From contig JAUXCK010000001.1 of the NCBI GenBank assembly GCA_030618925.1, forward strand, positions 1 through 29,613: a stretch of DNA of 29,613 bases. The letters are read 5' to 3'. How positions within the stretch are numbered: position 1 is the first letter of the stretch; the number at the start of each line of letters is the position of its first letter. A program made the position numbers and the translations under genes. The notes beneath the pieces are model-generated. The model ran no database searches, had not been told where the DNA came from, and saw nothing but the letters and a program-made list of their open reading frames with translations. Shown piece by piece: positions 1 to 15,050 of the stretch. Source of the stretch: Desulfobacteraceae bacterium (lineage in GTDB: Bacteria; Desulfobacterota; Desulfobacteria; Desulfobacterales; SURF-7).

Positions 1-343
1 AATCATCGGGATTCATATCAACGATATTATAATCAACATTTTGATTGCCTATTTTTAACCGTCTGTTTTCGATTTCAACAATGTTGATGTCCTCGTCTGG
101 AAAACTTCTGACAATTTCATATATCTTTCTTGAATTAATCGTAATCATACCACCTGAATGAATTTCCGCCGGATAAGATCCTTCAAACCCGGTTTCAAAA
201 TCAGTGGCAGAAATGGTAATGCCGGAATCATTTGATTGAATCAGAATACTTTCCGTTATTGCTAGACTGCTCTTCCGGTTGGTGATTCCCTGAACTTTTG
301 ATAGAACATCAAGAATGTCATTTTTTTTGATTGTCAATTTCAT
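1..343 (-). CDS. dnaN: DNA polymerase III beta sliding clamp, N-terminal part (truncated by window edge)
   Basis: Not in the ORF track. Manual translation from ATG at 343 gives MKLTIKKNDILDVLSKVQGITNRKSSLAITESILIQ...ISATDFETGFEG...GMITINSRKIYEIVRSFP, a typical beta-clamp N-terminus (ATDxE motif). The frame stays open to position 1. Confidence 0.93.
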   Translation of the reverse strand, partial: MKLTIKKNDILDVLSKVQGITNRKSSLAITESILIQSNDSGITISATDFETGFEGSYPAEIHSGGMITINSRKIYEIVRSFPDEDINIVEIENRRLKIGNQNVDYNIVDMNPDD

Positions 344-388
344 TTTTTTTCCAGTGGATAGCATTTATAAGGGGTTTGTTTTGAATAA

Positions 389-2429: not shown

Positions 2430-2954
2430 TTAAACAGAGATCCATTTTTTTACAAGAGGTACAATAGTCTTGTGCCATGATGGTGATAGTCTCAATTTAA
2501 CAAACTGAAAATAAAGGGTTTCAATTAAATGGACGACTTTTTCACAAAGAAATATTTTTTCAAGAACAGCACCGTCCAGGTCTTCCTCCTGTTCAATTGT
2601 CCCGGTCTCCGACACCTTAATGGCCGAAATAGTCAGACTTTCCCCCTTTAAATTAAATTTAAACCCGATGTTTCCGGATTTACAGGAAAAATTAAGCTCA
2701 GTCACCAGGCCGCCCTTTCTCAAGCAAAGTTTTCCTTCCTCGAGGTCAGCTTCATCCCCATTGATGATAATACGTTCCACAGCCTCATGCCGGGTATTTT
2801 CAAGAACAATTCGGTTATCGATCGTAAGAAATATCAACTCTTTTTCAATGTGGTGAAACCGATCCTGGTCCTCTTCCATAATAAACCACAACCAGGTTAG
2901 AAACTCGTGTCCTAAAAATTTATATCGATTGTATGAAATTGAAACATCAAGCAT
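2430..2954 (-). CDS. RdgC C-terminal-half-like protein
   Basis: EFLTWLWF...LRKGGLVTELNF...FKFNLKGESLTISAIK resembles the C-terminal part of RdgC (LTxWL...GKxVxKLAL...FxL), recalled from the family pattern. Starts 14 nt after the RdgC N-half gene. Confidence 0.55.
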   Translation of the reverse strand: MLDVSISYNRYKFLGHEFLTWLWFIMEEDQDRFHHIEKELIFLTIDNRIVLENTRHEAVERIIINGDEADLEEGKLCLRKGGLVTELNFSCKSGNIGFKFNLKGESLTISAIKVSETGTIEQEEDLDGAVLEKIFLCEKVVHLIETLYFQFVKLRLSPSWHKTIVPLVKKWISV

Positions 2955-2968
2955 TTTTTTAATCCGAA

Positions 2969-3583
2969 TTAATCCGTAAATTTTGTGGGAGAAAGGGTTG
3001 CCAGCCGATCATGCTCTGCATTGGAAATATCTGAAACCAAATCAGTCATTGTGTATGGAAAAAGCCGGATCAAGGTTAGCCTGAATGAACTTGAAAAGAG
3101 CGTTTCCAGTTCTTCGTTAGCGGCTTTAAGGGTTGAAAAAAACCACAAAGAAGATTTTTCATAATTCCACACAATATCGTAAATATTCAGAGTTGCCGGA
3201 ACACGTAAACTCAACGAATCTGTAATGTTAAGAGAGATAGACCTTTTTTCGCTTTGGGAAAGGAATTCCCGACCGGTCGTTGCCTTTTTTTTGGCTATTT
3301 CCAGGGCACATTTTTTTTTAATTATTTTTGAGGAGATGTTTTTTTTGTCGAGTCTGAGGGAAAAAATCAGATAAGACCCGATAACACAGGAAGACGTTTC
3401 AAAATCAGGTGCAAAGGGATCATTAAAAGAGGTCCATCCTGACGCGATTTGAACTGATTCATTATCAATGTCTTGAATTGTATTTTTTTTAAGGCCGTCT
3501 AGTACGGTATCCAGTAAAGAACCTTCTATTTTCCCCTTTACGAGATAGCGGGTTAAAGAAACGGAAGTTGATAGTAAACCCAT
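2969..3583 (-). CDS. rdgC: Recombination-associated protein RdgC-like (N-terminal part)
   Basis: SLTRYLV...SGWTS...FSLRLDKKNIS...TGREFLSQSEKRSI...LSLRV...YDIVWN...AANEELETLF follows the RdgC N-terminal pattern (GW; R-x-E/D-x-K; GR...EK; LLPR). Confidence 0.7.
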   Translation of the reverse strand: MGLLSTSVSLTRYLVKGKIEGSLLDTVLDGLKKNTIQDIDNESVQIASGWTSFNDPFAPDFETSSCVIGSYLIFSLRLDKKNISSKIIKKKCALEIAKKKATTGREFLSQSEKRSISLNITDSLSLRVPATLNIYDIVWNYEKSSLWFFSTLKAANEELETLFSSSFRLTLIRLFPYTMTDLVSDISNAEHDRLATLSPTKFTD

Positions 3584-3686
3584 GGTTTTGTTTCCAGTAT
3601 TAAAAAAGATGGCATCAGATATGATTGTTGGTGTCCATCCATAAGTGAAAAATTTGAAAAAATAGCCATTTGTGGAAGGCCACTGG

Positions 3687-3715
3687 TTGACTGAAGCGAC
3701 ATAAGCATATAGCTT
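3687..3715 (+). promoter_or_regulatory. Candidate sigma70 promoter for the EndoQ-UvrD gene
   Basis: TTGACT (3687-3692), 17-nt spacer, TAGCTT (3710-3715). Confidence 0.45.
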
Positions 3716-3721
3716 GATTAT

Positions 3722-3735
3722 CTTGTCGTGACAAG
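3722..3735. promoter_or_regulatory. Palindromic candidate operator CTTGTC-GT-GACAAG
   Basis: Perfect 6+6 inverted repeat at the predicted transcription start, nested inside a second inverted repeat ATAGCTTG (3709-3716) / CAAGCTAT (3732-3739). Confidence 0.4.
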
Positions 3736-3864
3736 CTATTTTTTAATCCTGTCTAATGCCTGAGCGAAAAATCTTGTTTTGGTCGGACACCATCAAAAGT
3801 TTCGACCCTCTTTGCCGGTAAAGTTGAATATCAGACAAATTACAGATCAAACAAGGGCGACAAA

Positions 3865-6800
3865 ATGGATTTTATAGCAGATCTCCACATTCATTCCAGA
3901 TTTTCAAGGGCCACGGCCAAAAATCTTGACTTTGAAAATTTATATGTCGCTGCCCAGCAGAAAGGGATCACTGTTTTGGGTACAGGGGATTTCACACACC
4001 CGGGCTGGTTTTCTGAAATCAAAGAAAAACTGATACCCGCCGAAGCCGGATTATTTAAATTAAAGGAAGGGGTCGCCGGCCAATGTGACAAATACATACC
4101 CCCCACATGCCGGGGATCGGTCCGGTTCATGCTGGTATCTGAAATCAGCAATATTTACAAAAAAAATGGGCGAACCAGAAAAAATCATAATCTCGTATTT
4201 ATGCCGGATCTTGATGCAGCAGAGCGTTTGATTTCAAGGCTTGATAAAATTGGAAATATTAAATCAGACGGCAGACCGATACTGGGTCTGGATGCCAAGC
4301 ACCTTCTTGACATTGTGCTTGAAATTTCTTCCCGGGCATTTCTGGTACCCGCACACATCTGGACGCCCTGGTTTTCAGTACTGGGTTCAAAATCCGGTTT
4401 TGATTCCATTGAAGAATGTTTTGAGGATCTCACACCTCACATTTTTGCTGTTGAAACCGGATTGTCATCAGACCCGGCGATGAACCGGAGGGTTTCCATG
4501 CTGGATGGACTGACGCTGATATCGAATTCTGACGCCCATTCCCCATCCAAGCTTGGCCGTGAAGCCACTCTTTTTAATACGGATCTTGAATATGCAGCCA
4601 TAAAATCGGCCATGGAAACCGGTGATCCTCACCATTTCAGAGGGACCTATGAATTTTACCCGGAAGAGGGAAAATATCATCTTGACGGGCACAGAAAATG
4701 CGGGGTTCGCTTATCCCCGGAAGAATCCATGAAAAACAGCGGGAAGTGCCCGGTGTGTGGAAGGGGTTTGACGCTTGGCGTGCTGTATCGTGTTGAGGAA
4801 CTGGCGGACCGGCCCCACAATGAAACACCGGAAAAATATCATCCGTATGAAACGCTTATACCGCTAACAGAGATTCTTTCAGAAATATTAAAAGTGGGAC
4901 CCAAATCCAAAAAGGTGCAGAAAAACTACAACACCGCCCTGGAAACCCTCGGTCCGGAATTTGGAATATTGCAAACGCGTTCTATAGAGGAACTTCATCT
5001 GGCTGGAATCCCCCTGCTGGGAGAAGCGATAAACAAAATACGTCAGAATAGAATTACCCTTTTCCCGGGTTTTGATGGAGAATTCGGAAAGATTCAAATT
5101 TTTTCCAAAGAAGAACGACAGGCGCTGGAGGGCCAGAGACCGCTTTTTATCAATCCCGGACCCCCCCCAAAAAAAGCAGTTGAAAACACCCACGACAGGG
5201 GCCGTACACCAAAACACAGGGTAACAAAAAGTCCATTAAAAAATAAACGGCCCCAAAACGCGAAGGCAGCAGCTTACCTTAACAGCCGGCAGAAGAAGGC
5301 AGTTCAACATCAAGGAACACCGCTTCTGATCGTTGCCGGACCAGGTACGGGAAAAACATTGACCCTGACCCATAAAATCGCTCACCTCATTAAAGAAAGG
5401 CGTGTTGACCCGGGCCATATTCTTGCCGTCACATTTACAAATAAAGCCGCACAGGAAATGAGAGAGAGACTCGAGTTGTTATTGGGGGCATTGGACTTGA
5501 TGCCTTATGCAACCACCTTCCATTCCCTCTGCTTTCGGATATTAAAATCACTGGACCGTCATGCCGGGCGTGTTGTCATTGACGAGAATGATCGGGCCAC
5601 TCTCATTGACGGGGCGGTAAAGCATGTAAAGAAAAAAACAGGTGTGTCTATTCCGGCAAAACACAATTTTACAAATGCGATCGTCAGTGCAAAACAACAG
5701 ATTCTTGGCCCCACAGATAATCTTGAAAAAATTGCTGCCCAAGGGGGCTGTGATGCCGCCCTTTTGCGCCAGGTATATGAGGTGTATCAGAAGCAGCTCT
5801 CCCTGCAGGAGGCCTATGATTTTGAGGATTTGATTTTTAAGGTTGTAAAACTTTTTGAGTCCAGCGAAAAAGTTCTTTTCACATATCAGGATCTTTTTAA
5901 ATATATATTTGTGGATGAATACCAGGATTTGAATCTGGGGCAGTATCGCATTGTCAAGGCCCTCGCTTCTGCAGACAAAGAAATCTGTGTGATCGGTGAT
6001 CCGGATCAGTCTATTTACGGGTTTCGAGGCTCTGATGTTCGCTATTCCAACCAGTTTATAGAGGATTATCCAGAGGCCGGGGTCATCAATCTGACGCGAA
6101 ATTATCGTTCCACGGAAACCATTCTCGAAGCATCACATCAGATCATCAGTGATCAGCATGTCAGTGTTTCCGGATCCAGGGTGTATTCTGGAATAGATGG
6201 AAAAAAAACCATTACCGTTCTTGAGCAGGAATCCGAAAAGGCGGAAGCCGTGGCGGTTGGGAAGATGATAGAAAGTATGATCGGCGGGCTAGGATTATAT
6301 TCAATCGATTTTGACAAAATAGATGATTCGGATGGGGACGGGGACAGGGGGTTTTCGGATTTTGCCGTGCTCTATCGCACAAAAGCCCAAGCGCCTGTTT
6401 TTGCAGAAATGTTTGAAAAAGCAGGCATCCCCTATCAGGTGGTCAGCAGGGAAAATTATTATTCAAAAAAAGGGATACGGGAACTTCTTTCGTTTTTGAA
6501 GATTGTGTGTCGGCGGGGAACCTATTCAGACCTCGAAAGAGTGATTCAAACCAGGGGGAAGGGCGTCGGGAAAAAAACGGTTGATGTGTTTAAAGAAAGG
6601 TGTTTTGAAAAAAATATTCCCCTAAATGATGTATTATTCCAGGATGGCGGCCACGCAATACAGGGATTAAGCAAGGTGCAGCAGCAGAAATTTGAGGGGG
6701 TGTTTGAGGATGTGTCAACACTTGAAAAACAGATGAAATCCATGAGTGTTGAACAAAAACTGATATTTTTAAAAGAAAATATCAAAAAATTAGGGCAAGC

Positions 6801-7281
6801 ACTCACCATTGATTCAAAAATAGAGGACATCTTTTCCCGCCTGATCAAGACAGCATCAAAATATGCTGAAAACCCTGCCGGGTTTTTTGAAATGATTTCC
6901 CTTCAGGAAGAAACAGATGCATATGAATTTAAGGCTGAAAAAGTCGCCTTAATGACCATGCATGCTGCAAAAGGACTGGAATTTCCCGTTGTCTTTATCG
7001 TGGGCTGTGAGGATGGGTTTATTCCATATAAACGGTCACCAGCAGGGGTTCAGGATATTGATGAAGAAAATCGTCTTTTTTATGTGGCCATGACCCGTGC
7101 AAGAGAAAATCTGTACCTGACGTATGCGAAAAAAAGAAAAATTTACGGAAAGAGTGAGGACAGAGACCTGTCGCCGTTTGTTGAGTATATTGAAGAAGGG
7201 TTGCGGTCCCATGAAAAATCACGGGCCAGGAGCAAAAAAAAACAGAAAAAAGAGAAGCATGTACAACTGGATCTTTTTTAA
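3865..7281 (+). CDS. Fusion of a PHP-domain endonuclease Q (TIGR00375-like) with a UvrD/PcrA superfamily 1A helicase; C-terminal beta-clamp-binding motif
   Basis: N-terminal DLHIHS, PAHIWTPW, ETGLS, SNSDAHS and the Zn ligands DGHRKC/CPVCG match EndoQ. Helicase motifs AGPGTGKT, DEYQD, GDPDQSIYGFRG, LMTMHAAKGLEF and RLFYVAMTRA. Protein ends in QLDLF. Confidence 0.92.
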   Translation: MDFIADLHIHSRFSRATAKNLDFENLYVAAQQKGITVLGTGDFTHPGWFSEIKEKLIPAEAGLFKLKEGVAGQCDKYIPPTCRGSVRFMLVSEISNIYKKNGRTRKNHNLVFMPDLDAAERLISRLDKIGNIKSDGRPILGLDAKHLLDIVLEISSRAFLVPAHIWTPWFSVLGSKSGFDSIEECFEDLTPHIFAVETGLSSDPAMNRRVSMLDGLTLISNSDAHSPSKLGREATLFNTDLEYAAIKSAMETGDPHHFRGTYEFYPEEGKYHLDGHRKCGVRLSPEESMKNSGKCPVCGRGLTLGVLYRVEELADRPHNETPEKYHPYETLIPLTEILSEILKVGPKSKKVQKNYNTALETLGPEFGILQTRSIEELHLAGIPLLGEAINKIRQNRITLFPGFDGEFGKIQIFSKEERQALEGQRPLFINPGPPPKKAVENTHDRGRTPKHRVTKSPLKNKRPQNAKAAAYLNSRQKKAVQHQGTPLLIVAGPGTGKTLTLTHKIAHLIKERRVDPGHILAVTFTNKAAQEMRERLELLLGALDLMPYATTFHSLCFRILKSLDRHAGRVVIDENDRATLIDGAVKHVKKKTGVSIPAKHNFTNAIVSAKQQILGPTDNLEKIAAQGGCDAALLRQVYEVYQKQLSLQEAYDFEDLIFKVVKLFESSEKVLFTYQDLFKYIFVDEYQDLNLGQYRIVKALASADKEICVIGDPDQSIYGFRGSDVRYSNQFIEDYPEAGVINLTRNYRSTETILEASHQIISDQHVSVSGSRVYSGIDGKKTITVLEQESEKAEAVAVGKMIESMIGGLGLYSIDFDKIDDSDGDGDRGFSDFAVLYRTKAQAPVFAEMFEKAGIPYQVVSRENYYSKKGIRELLSFLKIVCRRGTYSDLERVIQTRGKGVGKKTVDVFKERCFEKNIPLNDVLFQDGGHAIQGLSKVQQQKFEGVFEDVSTLEKQMKSMSVEQKLIFLKENIKKLGQALTIDSKIEDIFSRLIKTASKYAENPAGFFEMISLQEETDAYEFKAEKVALMTMHAAKGLEFPVVFIVGCEDGFIPYKRSPAGVQDIDEENRLFYVAMTRARENLYLTYAKKRKIYGKSEDRDLSPFVEYIEEGLRSHEKSRARSKKKQKKEKHVQLDLF

Positions 7282-7318
7282 TGTTTTTTTTTCACACGTT
7301 TAAAAAAATTTCATTTTG

Positions 7319-7327
7319 TGGTAAAAT
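7319..7327 (+). promoter_or_regulatory. Candidate extended -10 promoter for slt
   Basis: TG-G-TAAAAT about 90 nt upstream of the ATG at 7417. Confidence 0.3.
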
Positions 7328-7416
7328 AGCAGGTGGTAAATAAAGTCATTCGAAGTCATCACAATTTTAATTGGTTTCAGACACGCAACCATTTGTAAAA
7401 TATATTCATTCCAGAA

Positions 7417-8052
7417 ATGATTCGAAATTTAAAAACAGCTGTATGGACATTACTATTCCTCTTTGGGCTGGTTTGGGGATCCCATGCGGATATCTACCGG
7501 TACATCGACAGCAATGGCGTCCTCCATTTTACAAATGTGCCTGTTTCATCCGGCTATCAGATATATTTAAAGGAAAAATCTGCTAAACCCTCAGATTCAT
7601 ATGCATTAAAAACCACTTTGGGATCATATGTCTTACAGAAACCAGCAGCGTCATCAAATAAATATGATGGTTATATTTATCAGGCATCAAAAAAGCACGG
7701 CATTTCATTTTCACTGTTAAAGGCGGTGATTAAAGTGGAATCAAACTTTAATCCCCGGGCGGTTTCAAAAAAAGGAGCCAAGGGCCTGATGCAGATTATG
7801 CCGGAAAATTTGAGTGCATTGAACATAAATGATCCCTTTAATCCCAGGGAAAACATCATGGGGGGGAGCTGGTATTTAAAGACGCTCCTTACACGGTTTG
7901 ATGGACAACTTCCCCTGGCCCTGGCCGCCTATAACGCAGGCCCGACGGCCGTCGGTAAATATCGCAGGATACCCCCTTATTCCGAGACAAAGAATTATGT
8001 CAATAAGGTGATGACGCTTTATCATCAGCTGAGCAAGGATATTAACCCATAG
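7417..8052 (+). CDS. Lytic transglycosylase (SLT domain, DUF4124-like N-terminus)
   Basis: Signal peptide; DIYRYIDSNGVLHFTN; catalytic VESNFNPRAVSKKGAKGLMQIMP; AYNAG; ETKNYV. Confidence 0.92.
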   Translation: MIRNLKTAVWTLLFLFGLVWGSHADIYRYIDSNGVLHFTNVPVSSGYQIYLKEKSAKPSDSYALKTTLGSYVLQKPAASSNKYDGYIYQASKKHGISFSLLKAVIKVESNFNPRAVSKKGAKGLMQIMPENLSALNINDPFNPRENIMGGSWYLKTLLTRFDGQLPLALAAYNAGPTAVGKYRRIPPYSETKNYVNKVMTLYHQLSKDINP

Positions 8053-13238: not shown

Positions 13239-13862
13239 ATGGGAAAATCAAAAAATGTAGAGGAATATATCGCGCAGCAGCGGATGGCTGTGGCATCCAA
13301 TCCGGAATGCGGCACATCCCATTACAACCTGGCGATTGGGCTGCTTGGACTGAAAAAATATGATGAAGCGGAAAAGGTGCTTTTCGAAGCCATTGAATGC
13401 AGCCCGACTCTTGCCGAAGCCTATGTTCAGGTAGGCGGCATCTGCCTTCAGCGCGGAGATCTTGACGGTTGCCTGGACTGGAACCAGAGAGCCGTAAAAT
13501 CCAGGGCCGGATTTTCCGAAGGCTATGGGAATATCGGGTTTGTGCAGCTTCAAAAAGGAAATATAGATGAGGCGATTACGGCCCTTAAAAAGGCGATTGC
13601 GTTTAATTCAAATTTTGTTCAGGCATTCACCACACTGGCCAATGCCTATTTGATGACAGGCCTGGTGGAAGAAAGTATTCAGGCAAATATAAAGGCCCTG
13701 AGCATTGAACCTGATTTTGCCATCGCCCATAATAACCTGGCCATCGGGTATCTGGAACAGGGGAAATATGATAAAGCGATTGAACATTGTGATCGGGCGG
13801 TTGAATTTGGGTATGATGTCAATCCCGAGATATTGAAAGAGCTGGCACCTCACAGGAAGTAG
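13239..13862 (+). CDS. Tetratricopeptide repeat protein
   Basis: About five 34-aa TPR units (HYNLAIGL..., AYVQVGGI..., GYGNIGFV..., AFTTLANA..., AHNNLAIG...). Confidence 0.9.
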   Translation: MGKSKNVEEYIAQQRMAVASNPECGTSHYNLAIGLLGLKKYDEAEKVLFEAIECSPTLAEAYVQVGGICLQRGDLDGCLDWNQRAVKSRAGFSEGYGNIGFVQLQKGNIDEAITALKKAIAFNSNFVQAFTTLANAYLMTGLVEESIQANIKALSIEPDFAIAHNNLAIGYLEQGKYDKAIEHCDRAVEFGYDVNPEILKELAPHRK

Positions 13863-13883
13863 AAGGACGCTATTACGGTTGAC

Positions 13884-15050
13884 ATGGCAAATGACCCGTT
13901 TAAATTTTTTTTGTTCTCTGAAGAAACGCCCATCACACAGAACCACAAAATCTGGGGGGACGCCATACCCGTCAGCCGGAACAATCAGCAGAAAACAGCC
14001 GGTACCCCCGTGAGTTATGGGGACTATTTTCACGCCATCCGAAAATTCCTTGAAAAAAACCGGTTTGACCCCCTGTTGACCGCTGCCGCCTCACATTTAC
14101 AGACCCGCGTCACGAACCAGGAGATCAAAGACATCCATGTGATTCTGGAAAAACACGGGGCATTCTACCATCCCTCAAGAATTAAAACAAAAATAAGAGA
14201 TCGGGCGGTTCAATTCGTGGTCAATGCAGCTGTGTCTGATTCCGGCAGGGAGAGCATTGAACGAGAATACGGTCTATTGAAAAAGCTGGGCGATAAAATG
14301 TCGCCTTCTTTTATCCCCAAAGTGTATGCAAGGGATGAGGTTCAGGCAGGCAGCGGCGTTGAAATCAAGCTGTTTCTCGGACAATGGTTTGAAAATTATA
14401 GTGAATTTCATTACACCCAGCACCCGGACGGTGGTAAAAAAATCATTGTCTGGGATACTGCAAAGGGCAGTTATTTTTTATCAAACGATCAAACAAGAGC
14501 GCTGTACCAGGAGGCAGCCAGGATTCTGACTTATTATTACAACCCTGAGACATTTGAGCAAATATATCCCTGGCACCATGCAGCCGGGGATTTTGTTTTA
14601 ACCCTTCAGGACAACCGGGTGGATTTAAAGCTTGTCACCGTTCGAAGCGTATTGTCTCCCCTTGAAAAAACCGATATGGAAAAAAATGATCAGGATCTTC
14701 AGTCCATACTGGAGGCCATGCTTGTTTTTTTTCTGAATCTTTCCATTAGAACGCGCCTTGATCGAATTGATGGCGTCGGTGAAGTCGTGTGGTCTGACGA
14801 CACAGCGATCCAGGGGACTGTGGAAGGGTTCTTCACCAGCCTGGCATCAAAGCCGCAGATCAGGTTGACACCGGTTCCCCTTTCTGACTGCTTTCAATAT
14901 TATCTGTCCACCTATAATGAACAGGATCTATATGATCTCGCAGAAGATATTGTGAAAGCTTACCCCCTCCTGGCGCCAGAGGTTCCGGTGATAAAGAAAA
15001 ACCTGGAGAGGCATATTCATGATTTGATTCCTGCGGTAAAAAACAGGTAG
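13884..15050 (+). CDS. Hypothetical protein with a protein-kinase-like scaffold and non-canonical catalytic residues (pseudokinase candidate)
   Basis: Kinase-like subdomains in the expected order: KHGAFY (G-loop), FVVN (VAIK position), EREYGLLKKL (helix C), IPKVY, LFLGQW (hinge), PWHHAAGDF (HRDxxxxN position), KLVTVR (KLxDFG position). Confidence 0.6.
   Translation: MANDPFKFFLFSEETPITQNHKIWGDAIPVSRNNQQKTAGTPVSYGDYFHAIRKFLEKNRFDPLLTAAASHLQTRVTNQEIKDIHVILEKHGAFYHPSRIKTKIRDRAVQFVVNAAVSDSGRESIEREYGLLKKLGDKMSPSFIPKVYARDEVQAGSGVEIKLFLGQWFENYSEFHYTQHPDGGKKIIVWDTAKGSYFLSNDQTRALYQEAARILTYYYNPETFEQIYPWHHAAGDFVLTLQDNRVDLKLVTVRSVLSPLEKTDMEKNDQDLQSILEAMLVFFLNLSIRTRLDRIDGVGEVVWSDDTAIQGTVEGFFTSLASKPQIRLTPVPLSDCFQYYLSTYNEQDLYDLAEDIVKAYPLLAPEVPVIKKNLERHIHDLIPAVKNR

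Follow-up and report, generated by a model that had tools for sequence, protein, structure and literature searches.

What happens to DNA after endonuclease Q (EndoQ) has nicked it, and does the protein encoded at this locus carry part of the answer? The EndoQ incision leaves a 3′-hydroxyl and a 5′-phosphate, and its discoverers proposed that either strand displacement by a polymerase or helicase-dependent removal comes next (PMC4357722). In the window analysed here, a stretch of 29,613 nucleotides from a Desulfobacteraceae bacterium (assembly GCA_030618925.1, contig JAUXCK010000001.1), one gene joins an EndoQ nuclease to a UvrD/PcrA-type helicase and ends in a sequence resembling the binding motif for the bacterial sliding clamp (DnaN). 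The preliminary description of the locus knew of no biochemical characterisation of such a protein, and our search of the literature likewise found no experimental or biochemical study of an EndoQ-helicase fusion. The fusion argues that unwinding belongs to the EndoQ pathway, and it allows this question to be addressed with one protein. Judged from its sequence, it is probably a "nick-and-unwind" repair enzyme, tethered to the sliding clamp and acting on deaminated or abasic nucleotides.

Overall architecture of the fusion protein

The gene is a single open reading frame, and alignments with homologues start at residue 1 of its product. The protein consists of two modules, a linker and a short tail, with the following features, all on the plus strand:

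3865..7281, EndoQ-UvrD/PcrA fusion protein (P0001), whole open reading frame, 1138 amino acids, uninterrupted
3877..5106 (residues 5–414), endonuclease Q module comprising the PHP, Zn-binding and C-terminal helical domains, assigned from PDB 5zb8/7k30 and TIGR00375
5134..5148 (residues 424–428), internal clamp-binding-like motif QRPLF, a looser match to the consensus, which opens the disordered linker
5149..5271 (residues 429–469), hypervariable Pro/Ala/Lys-rich linker, delimited by column identity and pLDDT
5272..7194 (residues 470–1110), SF1A UvrD/PcrA-type helicase core, assigned from PcrA 1pjr, PF00580 and PF13361
7195..7263 (residues 1111–1133), short, variable Lys/Arg-rich tail, delimited by column identity and pLDDT
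7264..7278 (residues 1134–1138), C-terminal clamp-binding-like motif QLDLF, an exact match to the QL[S/D]LF consensus

The architecture first described, an intact EndoQ and a complete SF1A helicase in one polypeptide, is confirmed as a sequence-level observation, since both domains are matched within the 1138-residue frame; the functional interpretation that accompanied it is partly supported. The predicted model (pTM = 0.83) contains the two modules and a 45-residue disordered linker. Conservation was assessed in 114 full-length close homologues, 108 full-length fusions among the representatives of 50%-identity clusters (the diverse set), and 91 fusions of 37–77% identity, which served for column identity and invariant residues.

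The EndoQ module retains the catalytic set

Residues 5–414 match PfuEndoQ (PDB 5zb8 and 7k30; E about 1e-46, chain positions 5–384 of 400) and the EndoQ family profile (TIGR00375/COG1379; E 2e-50, positions 2–374 of 374), and these alignments cover the full EndoQ fold end to end. The C-terminal helical domain appears in the AF2 model as helices at residues 334–393 with pLDDT >90. The metal ligands of PfuEndoQ, His8, His10, Glu76, His84, His139 and Asp193, correspond to H8, H10, E93, H108, H164 and D223, which are kept in 114/114 close homologues. The lesion pocket is preserved apart from one position: PfuEndoQ His139, Thr142, Glu167, Gly169, Leu170, Ser171, Asn191 and Asp193 are identical to H164, T167, E197, G199, L200, S201, N221 and D223, and T167, E197, G199, L200, S201 and N221 recur in all 114 close homologues. 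The sole pocket change replaces Leu168 of the Pfu enzyme, a main-chain contact, with T198. The whole catalytic set is therefore retained, as the preliminary description of an intact nuclease implied.

The C4 zinc site of PfuEndoQ (Cys249, Cys252, Cys268 and Cys271) aligns to H276, C279, C295 and C298. The three cysteines never vary, and at least 90% of fusions have His at the first position; by alignment these four residues plausibly form an HC3 zinc site. The TIGR00375 score of 172.2 bits lies under the NCBIfam curated cut-off of 326.6 bits, which is a threshold and not a catalytic feature; this places the module in a divergent bacterial EndoQ branch rather than as an equivalog of the archaeal-type model.

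The helicase module is a complete SF1A core

Residues 468–1110 match PcrA (1pjr; E 1.8e-105, chain positions 8–642 of 724), and the Pfam models UvrD-helicase (PF00580, E 5e-74) and UvrD_C (PF13361, E 1e-55) match the same half of the protein. All SF1A motifs, Q, I (GxGxGKT), Ia, II (DEYQD), III, IV, V and VI, are present and aligned to PcrA, which bears out the earlier statement that the helicase is complete. Specifically, G492, G494, G496, K497, T498, D684, E685, Q687, D688 and R1078 are invariant in the 91 fusions, and an aromatic residue is conserved at the position of PcrA F626. The C-terminal region of PcrA is absent, the alignment stopping at position 642 of 724 with only 28 residues after the core. 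Against the equivalog models for PcrA, UvrD and Rep, every cut-off was missed, the best being PcrA (504 vs 911 bits). The same genome has a separate, stand-alone UvrD-like helicase, and the C-terminus of this paralogue holds no clamp-motif-like sequence.

The helicase could instead be a search or turnover motor, whose ATPase moves the enzyme to lesions or strips EndoQ from the nicked product, the lesion being removed by ordinary polymerase strand displacement. UvrD plays such a part in nucleotide excision repair, where it releases UvrC and the excised oligomer and so turns over UvrBC. This explanation draws on an architecture identical to that behind the nick-and-unwind reading, and the pTM of 0.83 hints at two modules packed together as a single body, which could share a DNA site. 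The full motif set and the F626-aligned aromatic residue fit true unwinding, yet they fit translocation equally. We consider a motor of this kind unlikely, and continue to favour a nuclease whose helicase unwinds from the nick.

The conserved neighbourhood is limited to one order

Upstream of the fusion gene, the window contains the following features:

2..364, minus strand, first 121 codons of dnaN, cut by the contig start (TIGR00663, E 3.6e-21, profile positions 1–113)
2430..2954, minus strand, conserved 174-residue partner of the RdgC-like gene, with no family match
2969..3583, minus strand, short RdgC-like gene of 204 residues, divergent from the fusion gene (Pfam RdgC, E 0.031; Atlas clusters)
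3584..3864, no strand, divergent intergenic region between the RdgC-like and fusion genes, with an 8-bp inverted repeat

The 204-residue gene is weakly RdgC-like: its Pfam RdgC match (E 0.031) is below the cut-off, and in the Atlas clusters nearest to it 70–90% of members carry PF04381. It co-occurs with the 174-residue gene in nine loci. The inverted repeat in the intergenic region spans 3709–3716 and 3732–3739 and is followed by a T run. The dnaN fragment lies 3.5 kb from the fusion gene, and the gene order with the RdgC-like gene and nearby dnaN-gyrB is kept in nine loci, all from the same taxonomic order. Neither dnaN nor rdgC was found next to the fusion in any of 35 loci from other orders of the phylum, searched up to ~8 kb on the upstream side. 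Their proximity is thus an inherited gene order limited to one taxonomic order and lends little functional support. Accordingly, the positions given earlier for dnaN and a divergent rdgC hold, while the identity of rdgC is weak and the functional weight of both neighbours is slight.

These neighbours bear on a second explanation, that the protein controls forks or recombination as a clamp-bound UvrD-like anti-recombinase with an RdgC-like neighbour, its PHP nuclease acting on branched DNA or on stalled forks. Both UvrD and RdgC antagonise RecA, and the divergent RdgC-like gene and dnaN-gyrB stay nearby in the nine same-order loci. The synteny is seen in 0/35 fusion loci outside the order, however, and the invariant pocket residues T167, E197, G199, L200, S201 and N221 point to selection for a flipped-out damaged base, which makes a role at forks or in recombination very improbable.

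Two clamp-binding-like motifs are conserved within disordered segments

The two motifs lie exactly where the preliminary description placed them, QLDLF at the C-terminus and QRPLF after the nuclease. The segments around them diverge freely. In the 91 fusions the linker varies from 27 to 167 residues (median 47) with a mean column identity of 0.16, and its commonest residues across homologues are P, A and K, in keeping with the Pro/Lys-rich character noted before. The tail before the terminal motif comprises 13–24 residues in homologues. Mean column identity is 0.77 for the terminal motif against 0.23 for the tail, and 0.59 for the internal motif against 0.16 for the linker. The AF2 model has pLDDT <50 at residues 425–469, 1125–1132 and 1135–1138. 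Both QxxLF motifs thus form conserved islands in segments modelled as disordered.

The terminal motif is the better kept. Its Q, L and F each occur in 114/114 close homologues, and Q1134 is invariant among the 91 fusions; the internal motif retains Q in 114/114, L in 111/114 and F in 112/114. A terminal clamp-motif-like sequence is present in 101 of the 108 diverse fusions, 82 of these 101 being strict QxxLF, and in 28/30 species-level fusions of the phylum. The conservation of the terminal QxxLF, proposed as a check when the motif was first noted, therefore holds among close and diverse homologues alike. Within the diverse set, 61 fusions have the internal motif, 56 have both and two have neither; the internal motif, missing from ~44%, is not essential to the family.

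Could the true partner of these motifs be something other than DnaN, or their role structural, with the resemblance to the clamp consensus a coincidence? A complex prediction for the tail with the DnaN dimer of a relative scored 0.69 against 0.67 for one control and is non-specific, and some family members end in the variants LL, LW or FF. On the other side, QLDLF fits QL[S/D]LF exactly and forms the very end of a disordered basic tail, a placement shared with known clamp ligands; the motif is conserved while its flanks vary freely, and in the archaeal homologue PCNA is bound through the corresponding position. A different partner, a structural role or a chance resemblance is very improbable on this evidence, and we take clamp tethering as part of the nick-and-unwind reading. 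If clamp binding is true, the protein would be an SF1A helicase with its own clamp-binding motif, of which we found no report in the literature searched.

A common bacterial fusion family, consistent with a single origin

Of 201 genomes of the phylum, 141 (~70%) contain an EndoQ homologue, with rarely more than one match per genome; in a global library 3649 clusters at 50% identity match. Fusions of this family are frequent among bacteria, where EndoQ is by no means rare, contrary to the early literature. Fusion and clamp tag have been kept together in thousands of bacterial lineages. In a tree of the phylum sample, 43/43 labelled fusions fall in one clade (support 100/99), which is consistent with a single origin. 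Additionally, a QxxLF-type motif closes 11 of 20 stand-alone EndoQs of the phylum, 10–20 residues past the last EndoQ strand, and the internal motif of the fusion occupies the position of this C-terminal motif of stand-alone bacterial EndoQs. The fusion probably descends from a stand-alone bacterial EndoQ with a clamp motif already at its C-terminus; this motif probably became internal, and the new C-terminus retains a second one.

A nuclease-helicase directed against phage or foreign DNA, acting for example on uracil-containing phage DNA in the manner of Gabija or other UvrD-based defence, is extremely unlikely: the PADLOC GajB models do match the helicase half (E 5.8e-92), and an antiviral role of bacterial EndoQ is suggested in a review (PMC8307549) that cites a 2017 Bacillus EndoQ paper, but the GajB match reflects generic UvrD homology (PcrA 504 vs GajB 307 bits), no neighbour matched any PADLOC model and a GajA-like (OLD-family nuclease) partner is absent, genomes rarely give more than one match to the gene, its chromosomal neighbourhood is stable, it occurs in ~70% of the phylum's genomes, and clamp tethering is a trait of replication and repair proteins.

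Proposed mechanism of the clamp-tethered enzyme

In the nick-and-unwind reading, one or both QxxLF motifs would bind the DnaN dimer in its hydrophobic clefts, enriching the enzyme on clamp-bearing DNA that is newly replicated or repaired, much as the PIP box of archaeal EndoQ does on PCNA. The EndoQ module would then flip out dU, dI, dX or an AP site and cut the phosphodiester 5′ of the lesion, giving a 3′-OH and a lesion-carrying 5′-phosphate. The helicase would engage the intact complementary strand and travel 3′–5′ past the lesion, peeling the lesion-bearing 5′ end into a flap, and it may also strip the nuclease off the product. The loading strand, and hence the displaced strand, is assigned purely from the 3′–5′ polarity of PcrA/UvrD. 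Finally, a clamp-bound polymerase would extend the 3′-OH, a 5′ flap nuclease or exonuclease would trim the displaced strand, and ligase would seal the nick.

More tentatively, the fusion might be the core of an undescribed alternative-excision pathway, in which the clamp-docked protein locates dU, dI or AP sites in DNA behind the fork and makes its nick 5′ of each, its motor on the intact strand peels the lesion strand, and a polymerase on that same clamp takes over the 3′-OH; both DnaN clefts would be filled by the two QxxLF motifs until incision is complete. The pathway might then be the main route of hypoxanthine repair where EndoV is not found, as in the family of the window. In 19 of 21 relatives no EndoV was found, so that a hypoxanthine pathway based on EndoQ would have room there. 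These genomes also encode a UDG as well as a UvrD-like helicase apart from the fusion, so the fusion pathway may be redundant.

Comparison with known systems

One of the closest known systems is archaeal EndoQ with PCNA (PfuEndoQ PF1551 and TkoEndoQ TK0887; PDB 5zb8 and 7k30–7k33). The same three-domain nuclease aligns end to end despite low sequence identity, with identical metal ligands and a pocket identical bar one main-chain position, and in both proteins a short clamp-docking motif directly follows the last nuclease domain. The fusion differs in the ~640-residue SF1A helicase added after the nuclease, in its two bacterial QxxLF motifs in place of the PIP box, and in its first zinc ligand, which is His (H276) rather than Cys. 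In TkoEndoQ, the C-terminal PIP box binds PCNA with a KD of 55 nM, and PCNA stimulates cleavage (PMC4858679).

Stand-alone bacterial EndoQs, such as those of Bacillus pumilus and B. subtilis and the ~420-residue EndoQs of the phylum, have the same nuclease without the helicase. Shiraishi is said to have sorted EndoQs in 2017 into three families by domain organisation, with the Bacillus enzymes as "family 2". According to PMC5961232 and PMC6202378, the Bacillus EndoQs nick DNA containing dU, dI or AP sites; ten stand-alone bacterial EndoQs that end in a QxxLF-type motif are given in Suppl. Fig. S1 of PMC4858679.

The same figure of Shiraishi et al. 2016 lists terminal clamp motifs on long bacterial EndoQ homologues (PMC4858679, Suppl. 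Fig. S1). These are the same protein family as the fusion, with ~950–1240 residues, an N-terminal EndoQ and a terminal QLxLF; in Desulfobacterium autotrophicum WP_015906045, for instance, QLDLF lies at 1152–1156 (PMC4858679, Suppl. Fig. S1). The idea of a clamp motif on bacterial EndoQ homologues is therefore already published and not new. Consequently, the earlier proposal of a bacterial counterpart of EndoQ-PCNA stands as far as the clamp motifs are seen, but not as a novelty, having been published in 2016 in the main text and Suppl. Fig. S1 of PMC4858679. That list gives the terminal motif only; the paper describes no internal motif, helicase module or single-clade pattern, and the main text mentions neither a helicase nor a fusion (PMC4858679).

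With PcrA, UvrD and Rep (PDB 1pjr, 2is1 and 1uaa), the fusion has the full core and all motifs in common, while a ~23-residue basic tail and the five-residue clamp motif stand in place of PcrA's C-terminal ~80 residues. In PcrA and UvrD, this C-terminal region binds RNA polymerase. Gabija sets a GajB-type helicase beside the OLD-family nuclease GajA, an arrangement not seen here.

EndoMS/NucS is an archaeal-type mismatch endonuclease that depends on PCNA in archaea and on the beta-clamp in Actinobacteria, its C-terminal clamp tag taking the form of a PIP box in the archaeal proteins and of a beta-clamp motif in the bacterial ones. It follows the same evolutionary logic as the fusion, that of a nuclease shared by archaea and bacteria with a C-terminal clamp tag, yet it has an unrelated fold and substrate (mismatches, with a double-strand cut) and carries no helicase. 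If clamp binding is true, the EndoQ fusion would be the second archaeal-type repair nuclease re-tagged for the bacterial clamp, after NucS/EndoMS.

Architecture and functional residues of the EndoQ–helicase fusion

The fusion gene encodes an endonuclease Q (EndoQ) nuclease followed by a UvrD/PcrA-type SF1A helicase in one protein.

3865-7281, + strand: fusion gene, 1138 codons in one open reading frame

The nuclease module (residues 5–414) is a full-length match to endonuclease Q, covering chain positions 5–384 of 400 of PDB entries 5zb8 and 7k30 (E ~1e-46) and profile positions 2–374 of 374 of NCBIfam TIGR00375 (E 2e-50), with a TIGR00375 score of 172 bits that lies below the curated cut-off of 326.6. 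The functional residues of PfuEndoQ, as defined by structural papers (PMC5961232; PMC8307549), were transferred onto the window protein via HMMER alignment. All tabulated positions are retained in 114 of 114 close homologues, which are full-length proteins with 67–85% nuclease identity. Additionally, residue T198 of the window protein replaces L168 of PfuEndoQ, a main-chain contact to the base.

Functional residues of PfuEndoQ and their counterparts in the window protein
Metal ligands: PfuEndoQ H8, H10, E76, H84, H139, D193; window protein H8, H10, E93, H108, H164, D223
Lesion pocket: PfuEndoQ T142, E167, G169, L170, S171, N191; window protein T167, E197, G199, L200, S201, N221
Zinc site: PfuEndoQ C249, C252, C268, C271; window protein H276, C279, C295, C298

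The helicase module (residues 468–1110) matches SF1A helicases, with PcrA (1pjr) aligned over chain positions 8–642 of 724 at E 1.8e-105 and further matches to UvrD, Rep and the Pfam families PF00580 and PF13361. Helicase motifs Q, I, Ia, II (DEYQD), III, IV, V and VI were all found, and an aromatic residue aligns with F626 of PcrA. Since the alignment ends at PcrA residue 642 and just 28 fusion residues remain after it, the C-terminal region of PcrA is missing from the fusion. None of the equivalog cut-offs is reached by the helicase, the best being that of PcrA (504 bits versus 911). The single reading frame, the full-length nuclease match and the complete helicase motif set agree with the preliminary description, which had reported an intact EndoQ–UvrD fusion with two motifs.

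We built an AlphaFold2 model of the whole 1138-residue chain from an alignment of 91 fusions, which reached a mean pLDDT of 89.6, with values below 50 at residues 425–469, 1125–1132 and 1135–1138. The pTM of 0.83, reached in spite of the 45-residue disordered linker, hints at a predicted packing in which nuclease and helicase keep a constant orientation to each other.

Two conserved clamp-type motifs lie in disordered segments

The preliminary description had placed QLDLF at the last five residues (1134–1138; window 7264-7278) and QRPLF at residues 424–428 (window 5134-5148), and both coordinates match. When conservation of the terminal QxxLF was checked as that description had proposed, all 114 close homologues proved to have its Q, L and F; the internal motif keeps Q in 114, L in 111 and F in 112. 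The nuclease half was also searched against a global cluster library (50% identity), giving 3649 clusters at E ≤1e-3, 1080 of these at E ≤1e-30, and the best 150 clusters yielded a diverse set of 108 full-length fusions. Within the last 14 residues, 101 of the 108 carry a clamp-motif-like sequence, in the strict form QxxLF in 82; the internal QxxLF is found in 61, both motifs in 56 and neither in 2. A species-level sample of the phylum (30 fusions) has the terminal motif in 28 and the internal motif in 17. The separate UvrD-like helicase of the same genome ends without a clamp-type motif.

In the alignment of 91 fusions, the internal motif is followed by a Pro/Ala/Lys-rich linker of 27–167 residues with a column identity of 0.16, and the Lys/Arg-rich tail before the terminal motif spans 13–24 residues with a column identity of 0.23; the internal and terminal motifs themselves reach 0.59 and 0.77. 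Short conserved motifs inside segments that are hypervariable and predicted to be disordered form the pattern expected of clamp ligands, and a partner other than the clamp is the less likely reading of both motifs. A complex prediction of tail residues 1104–1138 with two full-length DnaN chains gave 0.69 in all three runs, but one unrelated 35-residue control was nearly as high at 0.67; the DnaN was taken from a same-family relative (genome G012, L004:721-1842), as the fusion's own contig holds only 121 residues of DnaN.

Origin of the fusion

Stand-alone EndoQ genes of the phylum (n = 20, 413–438 aa) terminate in a QxxLF-type motif in 11 cases, 10–20 residues past the last EndoQ strand, which is the position of the internal motif in the fusion. 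Ten stand-alone examples with such a motif are also listed in a 2016 supplement (PMC4858679). When 66 nuclease domains were placed in a maximum-likelihood tree, midpoint-rooted for drawing only, all 43 labelled fusions formed a single clade (support 100/99). This clade also includes five genuine stand-alone genes, in which the helicase seems to have been lost secondarily, and two proteins of ~950 aa wrongly labelled stand-alone by the motif filter; 16 other stand-alones fall outside. These relationships fit a single fusion event that started from a bacterial EndoQ with a clamp tag, and the motif positions fit persistence of the old EndoQ tag as the internal motif with a new tag at the new C-terminus.

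Two close relatives carry stand-alone EndoQs of 419–421 aa (locus L024, G008:C128, 3798-5057; locus L065, G093:C68), with nuclease identities of 65% and 72%. Both end just short of the internal motif, and have neither the helicase nor either clamp motif. Since they are nested in the fusion clade, they look like secondary truncations. In one relative (locus L022, G013:C1:717093-719301) the fusion is divided over two frames: query residues 1–375, with the nuclease, lie in one of 400 aa, and the rest, helicase included, in one of 775 aa. A frameshift, a natural split or an assembly error could each explain this.

Genomic neighbourhood

The source genome bin comprises 2.7 Mb in 380 contigs and is 73% complete, and the nearest homologues come from sources named Desulfobacterales and Thermodesulfobacteriota. 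Genes upstream of the fusion include the following.

2-364, - strand: dnaN, first 121 codons, ending at the contig edge
2430-2954, - strand: 174-aa gene without a family match
2969-3583, - strand: 204-aa gene, divergent from the fusion, with weak RdgC likeness

The 174-aa and 204-aa genes are co-oriented and 14 nt apart. Nine loci within the order have this pair beside the fusion, and fusion loci of other orders lack it. In relatives, one strand carries gyrB, dnaN, sometimes ompA, the 174-aa gene and the RdgC-like gene, while the opposite strand carries the fusion gene, an SLT transglycosylase gene and a 297-aa gene. This core order is repeated in six relatives, with gyrB seen in the one locus examined, and a further three genomes from that order share it at least partly. 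The preliminary description had noted dnaN 3.5 kb away and a divergent rdgC. Of 35 fusion loci in the phylum's other orders, none had dnaN or the RdgC-like pair in fetched sequence reaching up to ~8 kb upstream. Proximity was therefore rejected as functional evidence, and that of dnaN is read as inherited gene order, conserved within one order only. A recombination or fork role of the fusion together with RdgC is a less likely reading.

The divergent intergenic region contains a perfect 8-bp inverted repeat (window 3709-3739: ATAGCTTG, a 15-nt spacer and CAAGCTAT, then five T on the + strand) 125 nt 5' of the fusion start codon, which may serve as an operator or form an attenuator-like hairpin. 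In a promoter and terminator scan of 3400-7700, promoter counts did not exceed those of shuffled sequence. Elsewhere, window 13239-15050 and the downstream region encode a TPR protein together with a 388-aa protein that matched no family in a Pfam scan.

Distribution, repair context and proposed mechanism

Of 201 sampled genomes of the phylum, 141 have EndoQ homologues, about half of them as fusions. The gene is an ordinary representative of a very widespread EndoQ branch that is fused to a helicase. A defence role, of the Gabija type or other, is less likely and was rejected on the grounds of generic homology, no partner gene and a housekeeping-type distribution. A whole-genome search of the own genome and 20 relatives, several of them incomplete, found no EndoV (PF04493) in 19 of 21, including the own genome and the rest of the 13 in the window's family, and detected UDG in 19 of 21. 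The principal hypoxanthine endonuclease of this lineage may be EndoQ. The fusion as the sole UvrD or sole uracil repair route of the cell was rejected, since the own genome and relatives also have UDG and a separate UvrD-like gene (open frame of ~660 aa).

What the data establish is the domain architecture, the completeness of the catalytic sets and the presence of two conserved motifs in segments modelled as disordered. We infer that the fusion would dock on DnaN and nick 5' of dU, dI, dX or AP sites, and that the helicase would translocate 3'-5' on the intact strand, displacing the lesion-bearing 5' end; a clamp-bound polymerase would then extend, the flap would be removed and ligation would follow. 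EndoQ products end in 3'-OH and 5'-phosphate, and the discoverers' scheme includes one pathway with a helicase removing the damaged stretch (PMC4357722). In the main rival explanation, the motor is used for lesion search or product release, not strand displacement; the complete helicase motif set is common to both readings.

Comparison with known EndoQ systems

The C-terminal PIP box of TkoEndoQ is bound by PCNA with a KD of 55 nM, and cleavage is stimulated (PMC4858679). The same paper already stated that bacterial EndoQ homologues have beta-clamp consensus motifs at their C-termini. Its Suppl. Fig. S1 gives motifs for 44 proteins, about 34 of them 945–1244 aa long, from genera spanning many bacterial groups (Geobacter, Desulfovibrio and Zymomonas among them), and includes Desulfobacterium autotrophicum with QLDLF at 1152–1156; the words helicase and fusion are absent from its main text. 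According to its citation in PMC5961232, a later paper distinguishes three EndoQ families sorted by domain organisation. The literature searched yielded no paper that characterises an EndoQ–helicase fusion or treats it as a nuclease-helicase. The preliminary description's proposal of a clamp-coupled repair enzyme for deaminated bases is supported at the sequence level, with clamp docking and enzymatic activity as predictions, and its clamp-motif part was anticipated in 2016 (PMC4858679).

Compared with PfuEndoQ, in which the first zinc ligand is Cys, the window protein has His at this position (residue H276, window 4690-4692). The three zinc-site Cys are invariant, and H276 is retained in at least 90% of 91 fusions with 37–77% identity, which suggests that an HC3 zinc site is typical of the helicase-fused EndoQ branch.
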